From Candidatus Helarchaeota ASGARD archaeon Hel_GB_B (GTDB lineage: Archaea; Asgardarchaeota; Lokiarchaeia; Helarchaeales; HEL-GB-B): a stretch of DNA of 32,000 bases. Shown piece after piece: positions 3,208 to 15,225 of the stretch. Numbering within the stretch: the stretch's first letter is position 1; each line of letters begins with the position of its first letter. The translations under genes were made by a program, and so were the position numbers. Below the pieces are notes generated by a model. It was given only the letters and a program-made list of their open reading frames with translations. It did not search any database and was not told the DNA's origin. The stretch covers positions 16,638-48,637 of the forward strand of contig SUPR01000014.1 in assembly GCA_005191425.1 (NCBI GenBank), in the 5' to 3' direction.

Positions 3208-4848
3208 TTATTTAAATTGTATAACCATACCGGGCAATTCTTCGGTGAGTTTTCCTTCGTCCATCACAACTTTTCCATTTACAATGACCTTATGGATACC
3301 TTTTGGAAATGATATAGGGTTCTGGTGTGTTGCTGTATCAATAACTGTATCTGGGTCAAAAATAACAATATCTGCTTTAAAATCTTCTTTTATTATTCCT
3401 CTATCATCAATAGAAAATTTTTTAGCAGGGAAACCTGTCATTTTGTAAATTGCTTCTTCAAGAGAAATAATTTGTGATTGGCGGGCGCACCTACCTAAAA
3501 TCCGAGGATAAGTACCTAATACTCTGGGGTGAGGTTTTCCCACATTTGGACATAAATTATCCGTTGAAAACATTAAATATGGTGATTTCATGAGTTTAAT
3601 TACATCTTTTTTTTTCATTAAGAACATTGAGATTAATATAGCACCTTCTTCCTCTCTTAATAAATTTAAAGTTGCATTATATATATCAACGCCTGGGTAT
3701 AACGTGTTAATGACATTTTCTAATGTTTTTCCTTCAAATTCGTGTTTATACTTCATGGACGTAATTATCACTTTTTTCTGTAATTTGTCCATTATCAGTT
3801 TCATCCAGACCATTTTTGGGATAAACCGTAGAAACCATGGAATACCGACCATTTTCCACAATGTATTTTTAAACTCATTAATTATTCGTTTTCTATTTAC
3901 GGGTGATGTAAGATTTTGTCTAAAAGCTTTATCGCCGCCATCAAATACCCAAGGTTGTAGTAATCCACTCAATACGCTATTTGCAGCTGTATATGGGTAC
4001 ATATCTCCGTTTACATCTACACCGAACTCTCGTGCATTTTTAATCATTTTATTTATTTTTTTTATGATATATTTTGTAAATATACTACCTGCAACTTTAA
4101 CATGTGAAATTTCGACAGAAGCACCTGTACTTTTCCCAATTTCAAGAGCTTCATTTATAGCTTTTATAATACCTCTACCTTCATCTCTAATATGAGTGGA
4201 ATAGATTCCACCATATTCACCGACCACTTTAGTTAATTCAATTAATTCATTTGTTGTTGTTATGGAGCCTGGTGGGTAGATCAAACCTGTGGAGATACCA
4301 AAAGCTCCATCTTCCATTCCTTCTCGGACTATCTGTTTCATCTGTTTTAGTTCATCATCGTTAGGCTCTTGGTTGTCCATTCCCATTACATATACTCTAA
4401 CATTACCTTGAGGAATTAAAAACCCAATATTCAGTGTGCAACCATTTTTATTAATGTAATTCATAAAATCACTAATTCTATTAAAGAATTCAATATTTAA
4501 TGACCCTAAAATAAACGAAATATAATTTTGGTAGTAATTTCTCACTGTTTCATTCATTGGTGCGAGTCCAATTCCACAATTACCAACAATTTCTGTAGTA
4601 ATTCCTTGCATAATACTATATTTAGCGTATTTGTCTAACAAATATGAAAAATCAAAATGAGAGTGGACATCTATGAACCCCGGGCAAACAACTTTTTTAC
4701 TTGCGTTAATCACCAAATCAGCAGTTTCTGAAGTATTACCGGTTTGAATATTAGTAATTATTCCTTTATCTATTAGTATATTCCCAGAGAACCTGTTATT
4801 CCCTGTTCCGTCTATGATTATTCCATTTTTTATTAGAATATCGGTCAT
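3208..4848 (-). CDS. N-acyl-D-amino-acid deacylase (D-aminoacylase) family amidohydrolase
   Basis: PGFIDVHSH metal motif, GNCG, STHIRDE, SHVK, FSTD, HPRVLGTYPRILG, KADIVIFDP; RBS-like AGGTTGA before ATG. Confidence 0.9.
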   Translation of the reverse strand: MTDILIKNGIIIDGTGNNRFSGNILIDKGIITNIQTGNTSETADLVINASKKVVCPGFIDVHSHFDFSYLLDKYAKYSIMQGITTEIVGNCGIGLAPMNETVRNYYQNYISFILGSLNIEFFNRISDFMNYINKNGCTLNIGFLIPQGNVRVYVMGMDNQEPNDDELKQMKQIVREGMEDGAFGISTGLIYPPGSITTTNELIELTKVVGEYGGIYSTHIRDEGRGIIKAINEALEIGKSTGASVEISHVKVAGSIFTKYIIKKINKMIKNAREFGVDVNGDMYPYTAANSVLSGLLQPWVFDGGDKAFRQNLTSPVNRKRIINEFKNTLWKMVGIPWFLRFIPKMVWMKLIMDKLQKKVIITSMKYKHEFEGKTLENVINTLYPGVDIYNATLNLLREEEGAILISMFLMKKKDVIKLMKSPYLMFSTDNLCPNVGKPHPRVLGTYPRILGRCARQSQIISLEEAIYKMTGFPAKKFSIDDRGIIKEDFKADIVIFDPDTVIDTATHQNPISFPKGIHKVIVNGKVVMDEGKLTEELPGMVIQFK

Positions 4849-4980
4849 ATTTTCAACCTATATTCGATAAATATTAAGTGAAATCATATTCATCAATATA
4901 ATATAAAAAAATTTAGTATCAAATAAAAATTAAAAAGTAAAAAAAATTGAATAAAATTAGACATGAATTTTTTTGTTTTT

Positions 4981-6732
4981 TTAGCTGGATTTTTTTTGTT
5001 TTTTTAATTCTTTTTGTAATAAAGCTCTCCTCATGACTTTTCCAACTGGTGTTTTTGGTATCATTCCTACAAATTCTACAATTCTTGGCCATTTATAACC
5101 AGCCATTTTTTCTTTAGCCCAATCGATGATTTCTTGTTCAGTAATTTTACCTTGATATTCAGGTTTCAATTTAATAAAGGCTTTAATTTTTTCTCCGACA
5201 ATTTCATCTGGGTCTGGGACGCCAATAACTGCACATTCAAGAACTGCTGGATGCTCATAAAGTGATTCTTCAACTTCCGCCGGTAATATTCGGTATCCTT
5301 TATATTTTATTTGTTCTTTTGTCCTGCCTACTATATAAAAAAAGCCTTTTTCGTCCATATAAGCTATATCTCCAGTTCTTAGCCAGATATTTCCGTTCTC
5401 GTCTTCAACAAGTGTATCTTTTGTAGCTTCAGGATTTTTCCAATAACCTTTCATAACTTGAGGGCCTCTTATTAATAATTCACCGCGTTCTCCGACTTTC
5501 AATTCAGTAATATAATCTGGGGGTTGGACTATTTTTGCGTCAGTGTCAATTATTGGAAAACTAATACTCTCTGGATTAATATCTTCCCAGCAGGCAGCTA
5601 CTGTGCACATGCAAGTGACTTCTGTGAGGCCATATGCATTTACTACTTTTAATCCTGTTTTGTCATGCCAAATTTTTGCTACTTTTGGCGGGAGGGCAGC
5701 AGCTCCGGATGCGCTAAATTCCAAGGACGAAAGGTCGCTTTTTTTAAAGTTTGGATGGTTAATTAAAAAATTGTACATTGTGGGAATACCCGAAAATGTC
5801 GCAAGTTTATATCTATCTATCATTTTAAGGACTTCCCCAGCATCAAAACTAGAATAAATTATCAAGCTAATCACTCCTAACACGCATGAATTAAGGACAA
5901 AAAAACCCATTCCATGACATAGTGGATTACAAGTTAATGACCTCACTTTTCCCAATTCTGCGAGAGTCTCTTCAACTGAGCCTCTCCATGAACCAGCAAC
6001 ACCTGTATATAAAAATTGAAACGAATTTGATAGAATATTTGAGTGCGTTAACATAACGCCTTTTGGGAGACCTGTCGTCCCACCTGTAAATAATAGTGCA
6101 CCCAAATCCTCCTTAATATTAATATTGACCTTTGGAAATAATGGGCGATACTTTTCAAGCAGTTTTTTAATAGTTATTTCATCAGGTTTGTCTGATGATA
6201 TTTTAATTATATTTTCAACATTTGCTTCTTTACATGCGCGTTTTACTGTTCCAAATAATCTCTCATCCGTAATGAAAACTTTTATTATTCCCGATGAATT
6301 AACAATATGAGCAACTTCCTTTTTTTTCAATAACGGATTTACAGGAATTAGGATACCCCCTGATTGACTTGAGGCATAAACTGCAAAAATATATTCTGGA
6401 CAATTTGGAGTCATAATTGCTATTCCATCGCCTTTTTTAATTCCAAATTCGTTCATAAATACATTTGTTAATACATCTACATAATAGGAAGTTTCATAAA
6501 ATGTATATTTATCATTAGTCTGGGGAAAATGCATCATTATGTTATTGGGGAAATCTAACGCGGATTTTTTTAATAAACAATGAAAACCTTCAAGTTCTGG
6601 ATATTTTAAAGTTTTTGGGATATAATCTGGTCTATTTTTAAGCCAAGGTCTACCCGGTCTGACCCATGGACTTTCATGGTCAAAATCTGCTACTTCCAGG
6701 CGATCATAATCACATCTTTCTTCATTAGACAA
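4981..6732 (-). CDS. Long-chain-fatty-acid--CoA ligase (AMP-forming, FadD-like)
   Basis: LFTGGTTGLPKGVMLTH P-loop, AYGLTE, LRTGDIAYMD, GRTKEQIK, PKTPVGKVMRR. Confidence 0.93.
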   Translation of the reverse strand: MSNEERCDYDRLEVADFDHESPWVRPGRPWLKNRPDYIPKTLKYPELEGFHCLLKKSALDFPNNIMMHFPQTNDKYTFYETSYYVDVLTNVFMNEFGIKKGDGIAIMTPNCPEYIFAVYASSQSGGILIPVNPLLKKKEVAHIVNSSGIIKVFITDERLFGTVKRACKEANVENIIKISSDKPDEITIKKLLEKYRPLFPKVNINIKEDLGALLFTGGTTGLPKGVMLTHSNILSNSFQFLYTGVAGSWRGSVEETLAELGKVRSLTCNPLCHGMGFFVLNSCVLGVISLIIYSSFDAGEVLKMIDRYKLATFSGIPTMYNFLINHPNFKKSDLSSLEFSASGAAALPPKVAKIWHDKTGLKVVNAYGLTEVTCMCTVAACWEDINPESISFPIIDTDAKIVQPPDYITELKVGERGELLIRGPQVMKGYWKNPEATKDTLVEDENGNIWLRTGDIAYMDEKGFFYIVGRTKEQIKYKGYRILPAEVEESLYEHPAVLECAVIGVPDPDEIVGEKIKAFIKLKPEYQGKITEQEIIDWAKEKMAGYKWPRIVEFVGMIPKTPVGKVMRRALLQKELKKQKKSS

Positions 6733-6918
6733 ACGAATTCACCCTTACAAAATAAAAATTAATTTGATTAGTATTATTGAATTTTTATTAAAAATTTAAT
6801 TAATTAATATTATTAATAATAAATATTAAATAGATTGATAAATTTAACATTTGAAGATTTATTATTATTACTAATAATTAATTAAAGAAATCATTAATCA
6901 ACAAGGCGTTTTTATAAA

Positions 6919-7938
6919 ATGAATCAAGAAATTGACCATAATTCTGAATCAATAAAGTCTATATACCACCAAATACAGGGATTTTTTAAGAATCCATTTG
7001 ATTATAAATTAAGCCTTAAATCATTATCCTGGTATTTAATAGCTTTAGTAAGTTGTTATTTAATTTCAAGTTTATTTCATGGTAGTATAAATATTCCAGT
7101 TAATATAAGTGAACTACCAAATGGTGCTGGACAATTTTTTCCGTTTCCCTTACCTGATATAATCGAACTTATTTTTATGGGTCCAATATTCACTCTAATC
7201 TATTTTATTATAATGAAAATAATGATAAAAAAAATTAAGATTGAAAAAAAGCGAGATTCTTATATTTCAGAATTTTTGGAGCTTATAAGTATTTTATTAG
7301 TGGGAATATTGGTAGCTGGACATTTTATCCATGTAACTTATAACTATGCAAGTCATCTTTATGATTTACAATTTGGTGGATATGATACTTCTAATTTATT
7401 TTTATTTTTATATTGGTCTGACGAATGGTTAGGACATCATCTTATTCATTTTGCATTTTTTTTCCAGATAATTTTATTTTTAATAGTTGAATATAAGCTT
7501 AACGATCATAAAATTATGAGTTGGGACGAAATCGCTCTTTCTGTTTCATTAGGGATTGGTCTATTTATTTTATTGGGATGGGCTACTTATGAAGGGCAAT
7601 GTACTTTTCCATTAATGCTACTTTGCTTCATTTTATTAATTGTAGAAATAATTATTATTTTAATAAAAAGGTTAAACCCACTAAGATTTCCTCTTATTTT
7701 CATTACAATGATCTCAAATATAATTGTAGTCGGATTCTATTTTTTCTGGATATTTAGTTATGGAATTAAACCATATTATCCTTTTATATATCAGCCGTCC
7801 GAGTTGAGCAATTACTTTGACCCGGTAAATCATTTATTAGAAATTTTTATTATAATTGCAATAATTTATTTATCTCTTTTTACAATAAAATTTATCAAAA
7901 ATTATAAAAAGAAGGACTTAAAAAATGAACCCAAATGA
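6919..7938 (+). CDS. Multi-pass membrane protein with CLN6-like motifs
   Basis: About 7-8 hydrophobic segments. Motifs GHFIH-x7-H, LYWSDEWLGHH, TYEGQ and YPFIYQP match recalled human CLN6 motifs GASIH..NH, LYYYDEYLGH, VTEGQ and YPGVIYVP in order. Confidence 0.65.
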   Translation: MNQEIDHNSESIKSIYHQIQGFFKNPFDYKLSLKSLSWYLIALVSCYLISSLFHGSINIPVNISELPNGAGQFFPFPLPDIIELIFMGPIFTLIYFIIMKIMIKKIKIEKKRDSYISEFLELISILLVGILVAGHFIHVTYNYASHLYDLQFGGYDTSNLFLFLYWSDEWLGHHLIHFAFFFQIILFLIVEYKLNDHKIMSWDEIALSVSLGIGLFILLGWATYEGQCTFPLMLLCFILLIVEIIIILIKRLNPLRFPLIFITMISNIIVVGFYFFWIFSYGIKPYYPFIYQPSELSNYFDPVNHLLEIFIIIAIIYLSLFTIKFIKNYKKKDLKNEPK

Positions 7939-8425
7939 AATTTTAGAATTAATGAAAAATAGGCGGTCAATTAGAGAATATACGGATACACCGATATCTA
8001 ATGAAGATATTAATATGATATTAGAAGCAGCTCGATGGTGTCAAAGTGGGAGTAATAAGCAGCCATGGCGATTTATTGTGATTAAAAATAAAAATATAAT
8101 AGAAAAACTTGCAAAATTAGCTAAATATGGCCACTTTGTTAAACGAGCTCCTGTTGTAATTGCCGTTGTATCTAATAAAAAAGTATCACCAAAATGGTAT
8201 ATTCATGACTCTTCAATGGCAGCTCATCAAATTTGTCTAATGGTATCTGCTCTGGGATTGGGCACTTGTTGGATAGGGAGTTTAGACCGTGATAAAGGTG
8301 CAGAATTATTAGGTCTCTCAAAAGATGAATTTCTCACAACAATTCTACCTATTGGACACCCCCAGAAAATTCCTAAACCAACACCTCGAAAACCATTAGA
8401 AAAAATCGTTTCTTATTTAGATTAG
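7925..8425 (+). CDS. Nitroreductase family protein
   Basis: RRSIREY, ILEAARWCQSGSNKQPWRFIVI, LGLGTCWIG, LPIGHP; overlaps upstream stop by 14 bp (likely co-transcribed). Confidence 0.92.
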   Translation: MNPNEILELMKNRRSIREYTDTPISNEDINMILEAARWCQSGSNKQPWRFIVIKNKNIIEKLAKLAKYGHFVKRAPVVIAVVSNKKVSPKWYIHDSSMAAHQICLMVSALGLGTCWIGSLDRDKGAELLGLSKDEFLTTILPIGHPQKIPKPTPRKPLEKIVSYLD

Positions 8426-8601
8426 TGGTGCAAGTTAATTAAAAAACTGTAATTTAACCTAAAATTCAACTTCATTTTTTCTTGTCCAACCGTTAAAAAG
8501 TTTTTAAAAAAATTCATGTTCAATATTAAAAAGCATAAATTCTAGATATATCTTTTATTTTACATTACTTTTTATAAACAAAATTAAAGAAAATAACAAA
8601 A

Positions 8602-10399
8602 ATGGAAAACGAAAATCTGAATAAAGACCAAAAGGTCAAACAAAAATCAAAAAGGACTGATGTTTTTAAAAAATCTGGCAGTTCAAGAGTAATCGCTTCT
8701 GCAAGTTGGACTATATTAATAGCTGTTATCGGTGCAATCATGTTATTTATTTATCAAGTAATTGCCGGAAATTATTATGGAGAAAGTGGTGGGCTTTCAT
8801 ATTTTAGTGTGACAGCTGCGATCCTTGCCATTTCAACTGCTATAAGTGTTGGGACTGGACAAGCTTTTATTAAAATTGGAAAAGAGCGATACACAATTGA
8901 TGGAATAGAAAAAGGTAATATTAAAATAATTCAAATGTCTAAAATCAATATGTTATTTGGGTTGATTATTACTGGAGTCGTCCTAATAATTTCGGTATTT
9001 AATTTTACTGATCCAGTATTTTTCATAATATTAATTGGAGCTTCAAGTGGCATCTTAATCACTTATATTAAAGATATTTTAGGAAATATGCTGGGAACTC
9101 TTAATCGGTTTGATATGTTAGCCATAGTTGGAGGTATTTATGGAGTTATTGTCTGTATTTTTGGTTTCTTGATTATTTCTTTGAATTTACCGCCTCAATT
9201 TCTAGCTTTTATTCCTACTATTATGATAATTATAATGTTAGCCCTGTCAATTTTTTTCTACAATAAAATTAAGACTGTTAGTTTTAAGGATTTATTTTTT
9301 AGCTTGAAAAAATTTCCGATTGAAAAACGGTTTGCAAAACATTATATTATTTATGGAATTGAATGCACAATCAGTAATTTGGTAGTATTTGGTATTTTTT
9401 CTCATATTGTGTTAATAATGACTTTTATATGCTATAATTATTGGGGTACTTTTTTAGGGATCACAACTAGTGTCCTAAATATGACTCAAATTCTTACATT
9501 AATTGATTCTTTTGTTTTTATCGAAGTTGCTTTGATTTTTTTTTTCAGGTCCATTAAATGTTGAAGTCAGTGAAGCTTACGCAAAAAAAGATTATATAAC
9601 AATGGAAAAATCAATAAATGCAGTTGGAAGGATTGGTATAATTATTGCACTTCCTATATCTTTAGCCATGACTTTTATGGCACCTCAATTAATCAAAATG
9701 TTTGCTTTAGGGTCGGTATCAAAAGGTTCTCCTCCAATATTAGACCCTTCCTTATTCTTTCAAGCATGGCTTACACTCTCTATAACTTCATTTGGTCAAG
9801 CTTTCTATGGATTAGCATGTATATTTGGAGCTGCTCTAATTGGGGCAGGAAAAGCTAAAAAGGCAGCAATGGGCTTCGGTATATCCGCAGTCCTTCTTTT
9901 TTTAAGTACTCCTGCATTAATTTTTCTGGTCGGTATTATTGATGATTATTTCCCTATTTTTGGCGTTTCTACATATTCATTAATTGGAACTGGATTTGCA
10001 TTTTTATTAAGTGGAATATTTGTATTACCTTATTTAGCTCGGGCTACGAAAACTGTTCTTAAAATTAAATATGATCTACGAGTTAAAAGATTAATCCCAT
10101 GTTTAATTATCCTTGCAATATATCTTATTTTAATACCAATTGATTCTGGAGCTTCATTTTTACTAAATTATTTTCCCACTCTTGGATTTGATCTTTTAAA
10201 GTTAATTCTCTTAACAATATTTCTTCTTATAGGGACTCTTATTAGTGGCGTTTCACTATGCTTTTTTGGAGTGATCGGAAAAGGTGATGGTAATATTTTA
10301 AGAGATACATTTGCTTCATTTAAAATGGGGATATTAGCTAAAATCATAATTAAAATCGGAAAATTTATCTACTACTTAAATCCAATGAACCCTAAATGA
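8602..10399 (+). pseudogene. MATE/MurJ/polysaccharide-flippase (MOP superfamily) membrane protein split by a +1 frameshift into 8602..9564 and 9602..10399
   Basis: Both ORFs are highly hydrophobic. Removing one T from the T10 run at 9536-9545 joins them through LIFFSGPLNVEVSEAYAKKDYITMEKSINAVGRIGIIIALP, a typical MOP mid-protein motif, giving about 598 aa. Confidence 0.7.
9536..9545 (+). repeat. T10 homopolymer at the frameshift site
   Basis: ga-tttttttttt-cagg; the downstream frame is closed by TGA at 9533-9535, so the shift must lie at or just after this run. Confidence 0.85.
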
Positions 10400-10651
10400 A
10401 TTAAACAATGAGATAATTATAAATAAGATGTATTTGACCTTTTAGTATACTTAAAAAGGTGTATTTACTTCTTTTTAATTTAAAAAATTCAATCATTTCT
10501 ATTCATAAGTGCTTTTAATTTCTTGTTCAATCATATTCATAATATGCAATTAAATATGATTAATAAAGCTATACTAATAATTTAAAAAGAAATAGTAATA
10601 AAAAATTGGGTATATTATTAATTTAATTAAATGGTATTTGTGTGAATTTAA

Positions 10652-11485
10652 ATGTGTGATTATTGTCTAAAATATGGCGATGGACATAAATGGTATTTAA
10701 ATCCCAAAAACTTTTCGGAGGAAACATTACATTCTGCTCGAGTTCAACAAGCCAGGATCATAGAATTTTTGGGTGGTAATTATAAAATGGAATTTGAAAT
10801 TGGTGCAGCAACAATTATTGATTCGCTTATTCCAGATTTACATGACCACCACAATCTTGAGATTGTAAGTACAAAAGTAGAAACAATGCATGGTGGACAG
10901 GTTGTACCACTTGAAGATGCACTTAAAATTATCGATTTATGTAATGGTAAAACAATTATTGTCCCATGTTATTGCAGACGCCATTTTGGTGGACTAGAAG
11001 ATGTTATGACCTGTATGTTTTTACACCCAATTCCTGAAATGGTCCCAAAAAACCGTCCCTATGAAAAATATATAATTTTAGATAAAGAAGAAGCTAAAAA
11101 GAAATTACGCGAATTTGATAAGATTGGTTATGTTCATACAGTTTTCTGGGCACCAGTCCCGGTTCCAATAGTGATTTGTAATTGTGAATATCCATATTGT
11201 ATCGGTTTAAAGTCTAGATTGAATTATAATGTAGTAAACGCCACTCGTAAATCTGAATATATTTGTGTTGCTGATGATTCTAAGTGTGATGCATGTGGTG
11301 GAGAGCCAAAATGTATCAGTAGGTGTCAATTTGGTGCAATTAAGAAAAAAATATCTGAAAATAACAAAGTAGTGGTCAATCCCTCTCAATGTTTTGGATG
11401 CGGCGTATGCAGAGTTGCTTGCAGACAAGGTGCCCTTAAATTAATAGATCGCTCCGAATTTCCCGCATTTAAAGATGATTATTAA
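10652..11485 (+). CDS. 4Fe-4S dicluster domain-containing protein
   Basis: C-terminal CDACGGEPKCISRCQF and CFGCGVCRVACRQ cluster motifs; extra Cys motifs PCYCR, CNCEYPYC and N-terminal MCDYC. Confidence 0.85.
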   Translation: MCDYCLKYGDGHKWYLNPKNFSEETLHSARVQQARIIEFLGGNYKMEFEIGAATIIDSLIPDLHDHHNLEIVSTKVETMHGGQVVPLEDALKIIDLCNGKTIIVPCYCRRHFGGLEDVMTCMFLHPIPEMVPKNRPYEKYIILDKEEAKKKLREFDKIGYVHTVFWAPVPVPIVICNCEYPYCIGLKSRLNYNVVNATRKSEYICVADDSKCDACGGEPKCISRCQFGAIKKKISENNKVVVNPSQCFGCGVCRVACRQGALKLIDRSEFPAFKDDY

Positions 11486-11493
11486 GGAGGCGA

Positions 11494-11745
11494 ATTGCTA
11501 TTATCCACAAAAAATATAAATTAAAAGTAAATAGAAAACTTTGCATTGACCCCCTTGAATGTGGAATAAAATGCGTTAAAGCATGTCCTTTTAAGTTATT
11601 AGCATATATCCAAACTAAAACTCCACCACCTGGAGCTCCTCCAGAGCGATATAAGATTGTTTTCGCCTTTAATATTTTATGTTATAATTGCGGGAAATGC
11701 CAGGAAGCATGCCCAGTTAATGCTATTTCCATTAAATTAATATAA
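11494..11745 (+). CDS. Small 2x[4Fe-4S] ferredoxin-like protein; not in ORF track
   Basis: KYKLKVNRKLCIDPLECGIKCVKACPFKLL...LCYNCGKCQEACPVNAISIKLI*, with CX5CX3CX3CP and CX2CX2CX3CP motifs. Strong AAGGAGG RBS at 11484-11490. No in-frame ATG/GTG/TTG, so the start is uncertain (ATT 11494/11500). Confidence 0.8.
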   Translation: MAIIHKKYKLKVNRKLCIDPLECGIKCVKACPFKLLAYIQTKTPPPGAPPERYKIVFAFNILCYNCGKCQEACPVNAISIKLI

Positions 11746-12175
11746 TTAACGTATTTCTTTAATTATGAAAAAAGTTATAATCTTATTGTTTAATCAATGT
11801 TTATATTCTCCTTTTTTAACACCCCTCATTTGACAATTTATTTTTTCAATTAAAAAAATATTTTAAAGGAAATCTTTATCTGTTTTCTAATTAAAAATAA
11901 AATTTTATTAAATGAGTAAAGAACAAAAAATATACTTAAATAATATGAGTATTTTATAAGGAGAAATATTATTATAATTTTAAAACAAAAATTCCATTTA
12001 ATTTTTATTTAAATCAATAATGAAAAAAATAAAGACTTTTTTACCTATACTTTATTAAAAAATCATTAGATTAATCTTTAAACATATAAATATTTAAATT
12101 ACGAATAAAATAAAATTAATTAAATATATTTTATTAATAGTTTCATATTAAAGAAAATAACTCTTTTTATAAATT

Positions 12176-12181
12176 AGGTGA
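12176..12181 (+). promoter_or_regulatory. Shine-Dalgarno site AGGTGA
   Basis: 6 nt upstream of ATG 12188; the same motif recurs at 25919-25924 (-) and as GGGGTGA at 19975-19981 (-). Confidence 0.65.
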
Positions 12182-12187
12182 TTAAAA

Positions 12188-13903
12188 ATGGTTTATTATA
12201 AAGTCGAAGGAGACAGATTATGGTATAAATATTGGCCAGAAGATATTCCCAAGAATATAGACATACCTGATGATATAAGTATTGATGATATGCTTAAGGG
12301 TACAGTTTCAAAATATCCAGATTATCCTGCGATGGTATTTAAAGGAAAAACGTGGAATTACAAACAATTAGATGAAGCAGTAGATGCATTTGCAAAAGGT
12401 TTACAAGATTTAGGACTACAAAAAGGGGATAGAGTTTGTATTAATATGCCAAATCTTCCTCAATATATGATTGCATTTTTTGGAGTTATGAGAGCTGGTG
12501 GTGTAGTAAGTCCTATTGTACCACTCCAAAAGGCCGCTGAAATTCGTCACCAGATCAATGACTCAGGAGCAAAAATGTTGATTATACTTGATGTATTTTA
12601 TGAAGAAGAAGTTCAAAAAATAATTGATGAATTACCACTTGAAAAAGTAATTTTAACTGGTATTGGGGAGGCGTTAAAACCTTTTGTCCGAATAATCGGA
12701 AACCTCTTAGGAAAAGTTCCGAAAATGAAAAAATGGCCAACTGGTGATAAGTTTGTCAAATTTAAAGATTTACTTAAATCGCAAGGTAAGCCAAAAGAGG
12801 TAAAATTTGATACTAAAAATGATTTAGCAGTTTTAATGTATACAGGAGGTACAACTGGACTACCTAAAGGAGCTATGTTGAGTCATTTTAATCTTGTAGC
12901 TAATTGTTACCAATGTGAAGCTTGGATCCCTGGTACTGAACCTGGAAAAGAAGCGACAGTTGGTGCACTCCCATTTTCTCATATATTTGGTCTTACTACT
13001 ATGATGCTAGTTGCTATTAAACTTGGTGCTAAATGTATTCTTATTCCTGATCCAAAAGATATACCTGACCTTATTTCTAATATTGTCAATAATAAGGGAA
13101 CTTTATTTAGTGGTGTAAATACTCTATTTAATAAGATTAATAATGATCCCAAAGCTAAAAAATTTGATTTATCATGTTTAAATTCAGCTCTCAGTGGTGC
13201 AGGGCCATTAGCATTAGATGTCCAAGAAAAATTTGAAAAATTAACTGGTGCGAGAATTGTGGAAGGATACGGATTAACTGAAACATCACCAGTAGTTTCT
13301 GCAAATCCACTTAGTCAAAAAGGTAAAAGAAAGATTGGGACTGTTGGATTTCCATTTCCCAATACTGATGTCAAGATTGTTGACCCGAGTACAAAAGAAG
13401 AAATACCCCAACCAGGTAAGGAAGAAGATGTTTCTACCCACGGAGAAATTGCAGTTAAAGGCCCACAAGTATTTTTAGGGTATTATAATAGGCCCGATGC
13501 TACTAAAAAAGATCTTCGTGATGGATGGGTATATACGGGTGATATTGGGTATTTTGATGAAGACGGATATTTGCATATAATGGACAGGTTAAAAGACTTG
13601 ATTAAATACAAAGGGCACTCGGTATATCCACGAGAAGTCGAAGATTTGATGTATCAATATGAACCGATTAATGAAGTCGGTGTAATCGGAGTTAAACTAG
13701 AAAGTGGTGAAGAAACCATTAAAGCATTTGTCTCATTAAAAGATGAATATAAAGGTAAAATTTCAGTTGAGGACATTCAAAATTGGTGTAAAGAAAACAT
13801 CGCCGGTTATAAATGGCCCAGAATTATAGAAATTATCGATGAAGTTCCTACAACTAACGTCGGAAAAGTACTTCGTCGAAAATTAAGAGAACGCATAGAA
13901 TAA
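12188..13903 (+). CDS. Long-chain-fatty-acid--CoA ligase (AMP-forming, FadD-like)
   Basis: MYTGGTTGLPKGAMLSH, EGYGLTETSP, YTGDIGYFD, DRLKDLIK, PTTNVGKVLRR. Confidence 0.95.
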   Translation: MVYYKVEGDRLWYKYWPEDIPKNIDIPDDISIDDMLKGTVSKYPDYPAMVFKGKTWNYKQLDEAVDAFAKGLQDLGLQKGDRVCINMPNLPQYMIAFFGVMRAGGVVSPIVPLQKAAEIRHQINDSGAKMLIILDVFYEEEVQKIIDELPLEKVILTGIGEALKPFVRIIGNLLGKVPKMKKWPTGDKFVKFKDLLKSQGKPKEVKFDTKNDLAVLMYTGGTTGLPKGAMLSHFNLVANCYQCEAWIPGTEPGKEATVGALPFSHIFGLTTMMLVAIKLGAKCILIPDPKDIPDLISNIVNNKGTLFSGVNTLFNKINNDPKAKKFDLSCLNSALSGAGPLALDVQEKFEKLTGARIVEGYGLTETSPVVSANPLSQKGKRKIGTVGFPFPNTDVKIVDPSTKEEIPQPGKEEDVSTHGEIAVKGPQVFLGYYNRPDATKKDLRDGWVYTGDIGYFDEDGYLHIMDRLKDLIKYKGHSVYPREVEDLMYQYEPINEVGVIGVKLESGEETIKAFVSLKDEYKGKISVEDIQNWCKENIAGYKWPRIIEIIDEVPTTNVGKVLRRKLRERIE

Positions 13904-14031
13904 AATACTTATTTTATTCAATTTTTAAATCATTTTTTATATATTTTTTCTGATTAAACATGAATTTAATTTTTTAGAACAAAAAATATGAAAATAATTA
14001 AAAATAAAAATAGTTTGATTTTATATTTCTT

Positions 14032-15225
14032 TTAGATAATTGCAAATTTCCTTAGTATTTCTTTAAATTCTTCGTCAGTTAATGCTGATTTTCTTATTCC
14101 GCTTCCAAATAAATGTTTTTGCAAATAATTTGTAAGGTTCTTTATACGACTATCTTTTTCATTAATTTCAGGCATAAATTCTTTAATTTTATAAATAATT
14201 ACTTTTTTACCTGAATATGGGCCAACAAGTAATCTCCGGACATTTCCAACGCTTTCAGGGGGAAATGGTTCATATGTCTCTGGGTGCTGTATTATACCTG
14301 CCGTATGAATTCCTGATTGATGAGTAAAAGCATTCATCCCTACTATTGCCTTATTAGATGGAATTCTTACTTCAGTGGCTTTGGATATTTTTTTACAGAC
14401 TTCCGTTAAATATTTAACATTATATTTATCTACTCCATGGTGGAATTTTAAGTTCATTATTACTTTTTCTGTTTCTGCATTTCCTGAACGCTCTCCCATT
14501 CCTAACATAGTAGTTGATGCCCACTTACAACCATGAGATAAAGCAATTAAAGTATTTGAAACTGCATTTCCCAAGTCATCATGTCCATGATATTCAAAAT
14601 TGATTTTAAAATGAGTACATAAATATTCGATTTTATCTGGAATACTTTTATTAATTGAAATTGTCTCACTAGTATGATGTGGACTACCTACCCCTACTGT
14701 ATCACATATCCTATATGTATCTATCTTTAAATCTTCCAATAATTGAATAATCTTTAGCTCAAAATCCCAATCTGCTCTTGTACAGTCTTCTCCATGATAA
14801 AAAACTCTAAGGCCATGGTCTATTGCATATTGAACTATCTCTTCTATCCTTTTATATGCAGTTTCACGGTCTATATTTAATTTATATTTAAGATGAATAT
14901 CTGAAATGGGGTGTGAAATACCTACTTCTTTTATATTAGGAAGATGCAATGCGTCGTCTATATCACTTTTGTTAGCTCGAACCCAAATAGCAACTCTTGT
15001 TTTATCCGGAATTTCTGACTCCAATATTAACCTTGCAGATTGTCGATCAATGTCATACCAGGTACCAAACATTTCAATACGTTCTATATTAATTTTTGAT
15101 AATAATCTTGCAATTTCTAGCCTCTCTTCAGGGTTAGGTGCCCTAATGCCTGGCATCTGTACTCCATCGCGCAGCGTAGTATCGTCTATACACCTTGTCA
15201 TCATCTCTTTTTGAGATAAAGTCAC
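14032..15225 (-). CDS. Homocitrate synthase / isopropylmalate synthase family (DRE-TIM metallolyase), no C-terminal regulatory domain
   Basis: DTTLRDGVQ, YHGHDDLGNA (HxH), GERSGNA, VGMNAFTHQSGIH; 397 aa; GTG start after AAGGTG. Confidence 0.85.
   Translation of the reverse strand: MTLSQKEMMTRCIDDTTLRDGVQMPGIRAPNPEERLEIARLLSKINIERIEMFGTWYDIDRQSARLILESEIPDKTRVAIWVRANKSDIDDALHLPNIKEVGISHPISDIHLKYKLNIDRETAYKRIEEIVQYAIDHGLRVFYHGEDCTRADWDFELKIIQLLEDLKIDTYRICDTVGVGSPHHTSETISINKSIPDKIEYLCTHFKINFEYHGHDDLGNAVSNTLIALSHGCKWASTTMLGMGERSGNAETEKVIMNLKFHHGVDKYNVKYLTEVCKKISKATEVRIPSNKAIVGMNAFTHQSGIHTAGIIQHPETYEPFPPESVGNVRRLLVGPYSGKKVIIYKIKEFMPEINEKDSRIKNLTNYLQKHLFGSGIRKSALTDEEFKEILRKFAII

Follow-up and report, generated by a model that had tools for sequence, protein, structure and literature searches.

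Does an archaeon encode a relative of the human Batten-disease protein CLN6 and, if so, what could such a protein do there? The question is raised by a 32,000-nucleotide stretch of contig SUPR01000014.1 from Candidatus Helarchaeota archaeon Hel_GB_B (hereafter the window), in which one open reading frame (ORF) encodes a polytopic membrane protein, P0001, that an earlier note had described from the DNA letters as CLN6-like, possibly an unrecognised eukaryotic signature protein (ESP), and perhaps a lipid enzyme with a metal-dependent His/Asp/Glu site. Our comparisons indicate that P0001 is very probably a true homolog within the CLN6 superfamily, that it has counterparts of most of the residues known to be essential in the human enzyme, and that the signature-protein label is unsupported. 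The relation to CLN6 is distant and current family models miss P0001: its subfamily is not seen by the Pfam and NCBIfam models and is annotated merely as hypothetical protein.

Searches with existing models gave no direct link, which counts against homology: P0001 matched no Pfam family at E ≤ 1, the CLN6 family PF15156 (gathering score 27 bits) included, and PF15156 run over the whole genome returned nothing at E ≤ 10. An NCBIfam scan of P0001 was likewise without a match, and its 23 close homologs (40-55% identity), all from metagenome-assembled genomes (MAGs) of Asgard archaea (Lokiarchaeota, Helarchaeota, Promethearchaeota), carry no Pfam annotation. The connection is made through intermediates. 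A phmmer search of P0001 against 1.8 billion representatives returned 57 matches, and 6 of the 53 that were aligned match PF15156; phmmer also found P0049 (E 8.7e-10, P0001 residues 78-298), which with 30.2 bits exceeds the cut-off of PF15156, and whose relatives P0095, P0094, P0098 and P0100 reach 47.3, 43.8, 41.9 and 40.2 bits, respectively. When the alignment of the P0001 family (A1) was compared by hhalign with an alignment of prokaryotic proteins that are PF15156-positive or near-positive (A5), the match spanned 245 columns, with a probability of 99.6% (E 2e-24). Searched with its own model of P0001, the ESM Atlas gave bacterial clusters as the best structural/feature matches, the top one having 362 members, with PF15156 on 12% of them, and aligning over 237 residues with TM-scores of 0.62 (query) and 0.83 (target). 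Because P0001 leads to P0049 and P0049 to PF15156-positive proteins, with each step statistically strong, we tie P0001 to CLN6; the homology claimed in the earlier note stands by way of these intermediates (phmmer, hhalign and Atlas), though not through a match to the Pfam CLN6 model itself.

The obvious alternative is chance likeness among hydrophobic membrane proteins, P0001 being unrelated to CLN6. Besides the missing Pfam match, it could draw on the lack of a PDB match by sequence or by fold: a PDB profile search with P0001 gave a single spurious match (E 0.16), Foldseek of the P0001 model against the PDB gave nothing at E ≤ 0.001, and VIA-align against 48,161 chains returned generic helical bundles only (best Z 9.2). 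An Atlas fold search with our own AlphaFold2 (AF2) model yielded rows at a TM-score of about 0.3 only, which we ascribe to a false negative of the quick search. Set against the chain of hidden Markov model comparisons, with a strong E-value at every step, the Atlas structural match and five motifs that match in order and spacing, chance likeness is scarcely credible.

These motifs can be followed residue by residue (Table 1). The ORF and its G-H-F-I-H and E-G-Q motifs lie where the earlier note had put them, and the G-G-Y and Y-Y-P-F-I-Y-Q-P-S-E motifs that it named are both present; the FLYWSDEWLGHH motif is there too, but had been started one codon late, at 7408 instead of 7405. The human motifs quoted in the note agree with the codon-optimised ORF printed in Zhu et al., from which the human motifs and numbering used here were translated by eye: MGASIHLVGDSVNH (residues 122-135), SGY (140-142), LLYYYDEYLGH (168-178), YLVTEGQ (223-229) and KYPGVIYVPEP (289-299). 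In both proteins the order I-H...D/N, Y-x-D-E-x-L-G-H, E-G-Q, Y-P...P-E is the same, as the note had said, and the spacing compatible, with 52 residues in P0001 versus 49 in human CLN6 between H173 (human H178) and the Glu of E-G-Q, and 62 versus 63 between this Glu and Y-P; the loop between transmembrane (TM) helices 3 and 4, counted from H138 to D168, is shorter in P0001 (30 versus 46 residues). On sequence grounds, the resemblance exceeds chance.

The residues behind these motifs have acquired a meaning only recently, as a biochemical function was assigned to CLN6 only in October 2026: through a 1,3-phosphoryl migration mediated by a histidine, it inverts the stereochemistry of glycerol. 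According to two preprints dated 9 October 2026 (bioRxiv 10.64898/2026.10.07.757350 and 10.64898/2026.10.07.757477), the human protein is a Ca2+-dependent epimerase of the endoplasmic reticulum that turns R,S- into S,S-glycerophosphoglycerol (GPG), a conversion to which bis(monoacylglycero)phosphate (BMP) owes its unusual stereochemistry. It is proposed that His178 attacks the phosphorus to form a phospho-histidine, which then passes the phosphate to the same glycerol's second primary hydroxyl. One of the two preprints reports that D59A, D131A, D173A, E174A, H178A and E227A give no rescue. Zhu et al. give a half-maximal effective Ca2+ concentration (EC50) near 0.9 mM and find no detectable epimerase activity in the purified H127Y patient variant; R62H and H127Y, re-expressed in knockout cells, do not restore GPG stereochemistry, and neither do D173/E174/H178 triple mutants nor a Y182A/Y223A mutant. 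Within the essential trio D173, E174 and H178, metal ligands are joined by the phospho-His nucleophile, H178. The human protein has been described as homodimeric and has a lumen-facing cavity.

Six of the ten essential human residues (D59, R62, H127, D131, D173, E174, H178, Y182, Y223, E227) have counterparts in P0001. Mapped by motif register and counted over 84 prokaryotic homologs, D168, E169 and H173 (human D173, E174 and H178) are present in 84/84, H138 (human H127) in 79/84 and E225 (human E227) in 70/84, while the position of human D131 is N142 in P0001 and Asn in 55 and Asp in 27 homologs (82/84 N or D). Q227, the last residue of E-G-Q, is kept in 68/84. The other four differ or escape mapping: Y182 corresponds to H177 and is not kept as Tyr, Y223 corresponds to W221 (Tyr in 31/84 homologs), and the region of D59 and R62, unmapped by tools, is alignable by eye only, with E65 and E83 as candidates. 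By this by-eye mapping E65 may stand in for human D59; it is invariant within the P0001 subfamily and Glu in 48 of the 61 rows that have a residue at its column, and E83, at the start of TM2, is also invariant in the subfamily. Alignment A1 contains 25 invariant columns, among them H138, D168, E169, G172, H173, H174, H177, E225, G226 and Q227, and Y287, P288 and Q292 of the Y-P loop are invariant in it as well. P0001 further differs from human CLN6 by three extra conserved histidines that are specific to its subfamily, H135, H174 (21/84 rows) and H177 (34/84 rows).

An AF2 model of P0001 built on A1 (predicted local distance difference test, pLDDT, 86; predicted TM-score, pTM, 0.81) has eight long helices, seven of which form the TM core and the eighth a C-terminal TM helix absent from human CLN6, and a beta-hairpin that follows the first. 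Loops assigned to the cytoplasm contain 14 Lys and Arg residues against 1 in loops assigned to the outside, a bias which places the N-terminus inside and all conserved motifs at the membrane's outer face. P0001 is thereby predicted to have a seven-TM core with a cytoplasmic N-terminus and an extracytoplasmic pocket. In this predicted arrangement the outer face is the topological equivalent of the ER (endoplasmic reticulum) lumen, in agreement with the lumen-facing cavity of CLN6; the human and vertebrate proteins likewise combine a seven-helix core and a cytoplasmic N-terminus with a conserved polar pocket on the lumenal side. A homodimer, too, is predicted for P0001, with a score of 0.83 versus 0.00 for the best control and an interface formed by TM3, TM4 and the hairpin; contact agreement between runs was ≥95% and partner pLDDT ≥88. 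Among proteins of solved structure, 20/30 homo-pairs but only 1/23 single chains attain this mark, counts that hold roughly here because the run used a custom alignment. Since PDB searches gave no related structure, we do not regard the result as memory of a known complex; the model supports binding without demonstrating it.

With the catalytic core conserved, histidine-mediated, metal-dependent phosphoryl transfer at the outer face would be the most likely mechanism. P0001 would act as a homodimeric polytopic membrane enzyme whose conserved polar motifs line an extracytoplasmic pocket, where a divalent metal held by D168, E169, E225 and N142 would position the phosphate of a glycerophosphodiester. 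H173 would attack the phosphorus to give a phospho-histidine, and the phosphoryl group would then pass to another hydroxyl of the same glycerol, a 1,3-migration that would invert the configuration of the glycerol from an sn-3 to an sn-1 linkage. Candidate substrates are free GPG, another glycerophosphodiester or a lipid head group. Because two GDPD glycerophosphodiesterase genes occur in this genome, glycerophosphodiesters are part of the metabolism of the host; no match to the N-terminal domain of NAD-dependent glycerol-3-phosphate dehydrogenase (PF01210) was found in this 93.7%-complete genome. Taken as a whole, the reading of P0001 as a CLN6 homolog with CLN6-like phosphoryl-transfer chemistry is evenly balanced in our judgement; His-mediated phosphoryl transfer on a glycerophosphodiester, considered by itself, is a serious but tentative proposal, and that GPG is the substrate is rather unlikely. 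The metal-dependent His/Asp/Glu lipid-enzyme site suggested by the earlier note has been borne out for human CLN6 by the October 2026 preprints; what P0001 contributes is the conservation of the core residues.

Several points weigh against CLN6-like chemistry in P0001. We infer this chemistry for the prokaryotic members from residue comparison with the human enzyme, whose own mechanism rests on two preprints and on QM/MM (quantum mechanics/molecular mechanics) modelling. Four of the ten essential residues are unmatched in P0001, and Asn, the residue of P0001 at position 142, is the majority choice of prokaryotes at a site where the human D131A mutant gives no rescue. In BMP synthesis, CLN6 acts upstream of CLN8, a TLC acyltransferase, and of CLN5. 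Neither a CLN8-type gene (PF03798) nor CLN5 (PF15014; a weak negative, as its control was silent in all control genomes) was found in this 93.7%-complete archaeal genome, so the context of the mammalian BMP pathway appears to be missing. Finally, the five conserved histidines of the P0001 subfamily suggest a transition-metal rather than a Ca2+ site, and the three extra ones among them are the reason why the metal, and perhaps the reaction, may differ from those of human CLN6.

This last point is the core of an alternative in which P0001 belongs to the CLN6 superfamily and has a different chemistry, that of a Zn-, Mn- or Fe-dependent integral-membrane hydrolase at the outer face (for example a phosphodiesterase, a lipid phosphatase or an amidase) resembling the His-rich sites of CREST-type seven-TM hydrolases. 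Histidine-rich sites usually bind transition metals, and H135, H174 and H177 create G-H-x-I-H and H-H-x-x-H patterns; the replacement of human Y182 and Y223 and the apparent absence of the BMP pathway partners fit this explanation as well. The residues common to the whole family are, however, exactly those of the CLN6 phosphoryl-transfer site, and only one subfamily has the extra histidines; this leaves the hydrolase as a possible but on balance unlikely reading. A further alternative is that P0001 has no enzymatic activity and serves the membrane as, for instance, a scaffold, a cargo receptor or a transporter, which was for a long time the assumption about CLN6. Descriptions from before 2026 place CLN6 together with CLN8 in a complex for ER export, and the activity of the prokaryotic members is a prediction; yet in Asgard archaea and bacteria alike, invariant Asp, Glu and His residues lie within membrane helices or at their ends, and the same residues, when mutated, abolish catalysis in purified human CLN6. 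We consider a non-enzymatic role very improbable. As for the CREST enzymes themselves (alkaline ceramidases and PAQR/AdipoR; PMC3146951), they are seven-TM metal-dependent hydrolases that share with P0001 a polytopic build and conserved His/Asp motifs including H-x-x-x-H, but no sequence relation was detected and the likeness is in style only; AdipoR and alkaline ceramidase structures were absent among the Foldseek and VIA-align matches of P0001.

If P0001 does carry out CLN6-like phosphoryl transfer, one has to ask which role an inverter of glycerol configuration would have in organisms whose lipids use the opposite glycerol-phosphate stereochemistry. Compact archaeal and bacterial homologs that contain the catalytic core would also offer easily expressed proteins for work on the structure and mechanism of this Batten-disease enzyme. 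Archaeal or bacterial homologs are mentioned in neither of the two October 2026 CLN6 preprints, and a literature search for CLN6 with Asgard or bacterial homologs found no paper linking them.

Is P0001, then, an ESP inherited vertically at eukaryogenesis, that is, the Asgard ancestor of eukaryotic CLN6? Several observations favour such a descent. In an even sample of the Asgard phylum the family profile is found in 42/301 genomes (23/70 genera), far more often than in an Actinomycetota sample (2/301 genomes, one of them the genome on which the sample was centred); PF15156 detects the family in only 4/301 of the same Asgard genomes, with 1 above the cut-off. The Asgard family is deeply diversified, with several paralog clades in a quick maximum-likelihood tree of 84 prokaryotic rows and no eukaryotes, where P0001 falls in a well-supported 33-row Asgard clade. 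Moreover, the top prokaryotic scorers on PF15156 (40-47 bits) are encoded in an archaeal genome: proteins of the P0100 type share their contig with L37e, LSM and an A-type ATPase operon, and because the ATPase B subunit of the P0100 genome has 91% identity to its Promethearchaeum syntrophicum counterpart, they are likewise assigned to Asgard archaea. The complete genome G215, considered as Promethearchaeum syntrophicum MK-D1, was rejected, its ATPase B subunit being only 74% identical.

The distribution nevertheless argues against the signature-protein label, on account of bacterial homologs, a patchy spread within Asgard archaea and a limited distribution in eukaryotes. The family is not confined to Asgard archaea and eukaryotes: a scan of named species-representative genomes found it in Promethearchaeota, Baldrarchaeum, Hodarchaeota and one Actinomycetota bacterium (L019/P0106), P0092 comes from a Deltaproteobacteria MAG, and many bacterial members exist in metagenomes, as seen from Atlas clusters of 53-362 members that are 85-100% Bacteria, with Chloroflexota and Actinomycetota dominant. 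The bacterial rows of the tree fall within a clade of short proteins (about 245 aa), alongside rows from Hodarchaeota and Baldrarchaeum. Among high-quality Asgard genomes only 12/90 have the family, and the sampling of homologs, which began from an Asgard query, was biased towards Asgard. Yeast and flies are reported to lack CLN6, and in 2008 BLAST searches found it in vertebrates only; by the literature, eukaryotic CLN6 is not pan-eukaryotic. Our searches aimed at the eukaryotic CLN6 sequence returned prokaryotic proteins only. The P0001 subfamily, in addition, is not the prokaryotic group most like eukaryotic CLN6; by Pfam score, that place belongs to the P0100 type. The proposal of an unrecognised ESP made in the earlier note therefore finds no support, and a vertical inheritance of CLN6 from P0001 is quite unlikely. 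Bolder still would be the view that Asgard CLN6-like proteins are outward-facing enzymes moving a phosphodiester between the primary hydroxyls of glycerol, and that eukaryotic CLN6, the maker of sn-1,sn-1' BMP, descends from such an Asgard gene. We regard this as decidedly improbable; if true, glycerophosphodiesters or lipid head groups could be interconverted between the sn-3 linkage of the bacterial and eukaryotic type and the sn-1 linkage of the archaeal type, and Asgard CLN6-like proteins would provide a direct enzymatic link between the two sides of the 'lipid divide'.

Two other prokaryotic types help to place P0001 within the family. The P0095/P0100 type (Asgard, PF15156-positive, full-length size 304-317 aa, source genome close to Promethearchaeum) shares with it the C-terminal K-P-Y-Y-P-F-x-Y-Q-P-S-E-L and an I-S-E after TM1, and differs by S-N-S-S-H-V-I-V-N-R-I-N, Y-D-E-Y-V/L-G-H-L and a long, CLN6-like loop; it forms a separate clade and scores 40-47 bits on PF15156, where the P0001 type scores nothing. 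The short type, with the pattern E-G-H-G-I-H...Y-F-Y-D-E-I-L-G-H...I-E-G-Q...Q-P-S-E-L, spans both domains, with hosts in Hodarchaeota, Baldrarchaeum, Promethearchaeota, Actinomycetota, Deltaproteobacteria and the Chloroflexota/Actinomycetota Atlas clusters. It has the core motifs and the predicted fold of P0001 (Atlas TM-score 0.56-0.62 by query, 0.75-0.86 by target), but is shorter and lacks the hairpin I-S-E and the Y-Y-P-F segment. The eighth TM helix is confined to a subgroup of 336-342 aa (P0001 and P0003-P0006); family members outside this subgroup end after the Y-P...P-S-E-L loop, like human CLN6.

The Hel_GB_B genome itself contains two further family members on another contig (Table 1). 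An intact paralog of 273 aa keeps D, E, H, H-H-x-x-H and E-G-Q and lies far from P0001 in the tree, beside P0069 and P0070. The other copy is split over two frames, with stops (1 TAG, 1 TAA) inside the match, and must be a pseudogene or else a gene with a frameshift. Tandem CLN6-like genes are found in another Asgard MAG (L014, 3817-4677 and 4681-5520; identical to G293:C107); because the two copies fall in different subclades of the 33-row clade, the duplication is old.

Table 1. Features of the CLN6-like gene, its flanks and its paralogs in the Hel_GB_B genome (window positions unless a contig is given; TM placement and sidedness as predicted)
Feature	Positions	Strand	Remarks
AMP-binding (acyl-CoA ligase type) gene, divergent	4981..6732	-	PF00501, 245.5 bits
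Intergenic region between AMP-ligase and CLN6-like gene	6733..6918		AT-rich, divergent
CLN6-like membrane protein gene (P0001), family member 1	6919..7938	+	ATG to TGA ORF, 339 aa
N-I-S-E-L, residues 62-66	7102..7116	+	Extracytoplasmic beta-hairpin after TM1; alignment and AF2 model
D80-x-x-E83...M-G-P89	7156..7185	+	TM2 start; by-eye counterpart of human G-D83-Y-F-H86...T-P94
G134-H135-F-I-H138-x-x-x-N142	7318..7344	+	Outer end of TM3
GHFIH, G134-H138	7318-7332	+	
GGY, residues 153-155		+	
FLYWSDEWLGHH motif, residues 163-174	7405-7440	+	
Y165-W-S-D168-E169-W-L-G-H173-H174-L-I-H177	7411..7449	+	Outer start of TM4
W221-A-T-Y-E225-G-Q227	7579..7599	+	Outer TM5/TM6 turn
EGQ, E225-Q227	7591-7599	+	
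Y-Y-P-F-I-Y-Q-P-S-E-L, residues 286-296	7774..7806	+	Extracytoplasmic loop after TM7; human K-Y-P-G-V-I-Y-V-P-E-P
Extra eighth TM helix, residues 302-335	7822..7923	+	Followed by Lys-rich cytoplasmic tail; alignment and AF2 model
Nitroreductase-family gene	7925..8425	+	PF00881, 113.7 bits; starts 14 nt inside the end of the CLN6-like ORF
Intact 273-aa paralog, family member 2	G000:C160:12175-12963	-	Other contig; locus L021
Broken copy, family member 3	G000:C160:53811-54658	+	Loci L022/L023

The genes on either side of P0001 are those described in the earlier note, a divergent acyl-CoA ligase and an overlapping nitroreductase. Presumably the intergenic region holds the promoters of both divergent genes, and the 14-nt overlap suggests that the CLN6-like gene and the nitroreductase gene are probably co-transcribed. 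The arrangement of AMP-ligase and nitroreductase recurs beside P0004 and P0005, and an AMP-ligase also lies upstream of P0006. All of this forms part of a longer synteny block (window 3208-15225) common to Lokiarchaeota and Helarchaeota MAGs (loci L028, L029 and L041), with the order amidohydrolase, AMP-ligase, CLN6-like gene, nitroreductase, a 277-aa ferredoxin-like gene, a second AMP-ligase and an HMGL-like/homocitrate-synthase-like gene. P0003, the closest homolog, and the wider family have different neighbours, and the context is kept only within the 336-342-aa subgroup. We take the block to reflect shared ancestry, not a functional operon; restricted to the closest relatives and embedded in a long stretch of synteny, the gene context carries little of the functional information that the earlier note had hoped for.

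Between the nitroreductase and ferredoxin-like genes of the window lie two adjacent ORFs for multi-pass membrane proteins of 320 and 265 aa without a Pfam family (8602-9564 and 9602-10399, + strand), in different frames and 37 nt apart, which may represent one split gene or an insertion; in their place, L029 and L041 carry a gene of the metallo-beta-lactamase fold. The window stretch occurs in hydrothermal-vent and marine-sediment metagenomes. Elsewhere in the family, in a Hodarchaeota MAG (L017, 159-1058) and a Promethearchaeota MAG (L018, 4961-5860), one and the same conserved 299-aa gene is immediately followed by a short CLN6-like gene, possibly as a conserved pair. A gene for a membrane protein with a VTT domain (DedA/VMP1/TMEM41-type; L007, 12884-13750, and L008, 6933-7799) stands two genes downstream from the CLN6-like gene of P0090 and belongs to another lipid-related family that is shared with eukaryotes.

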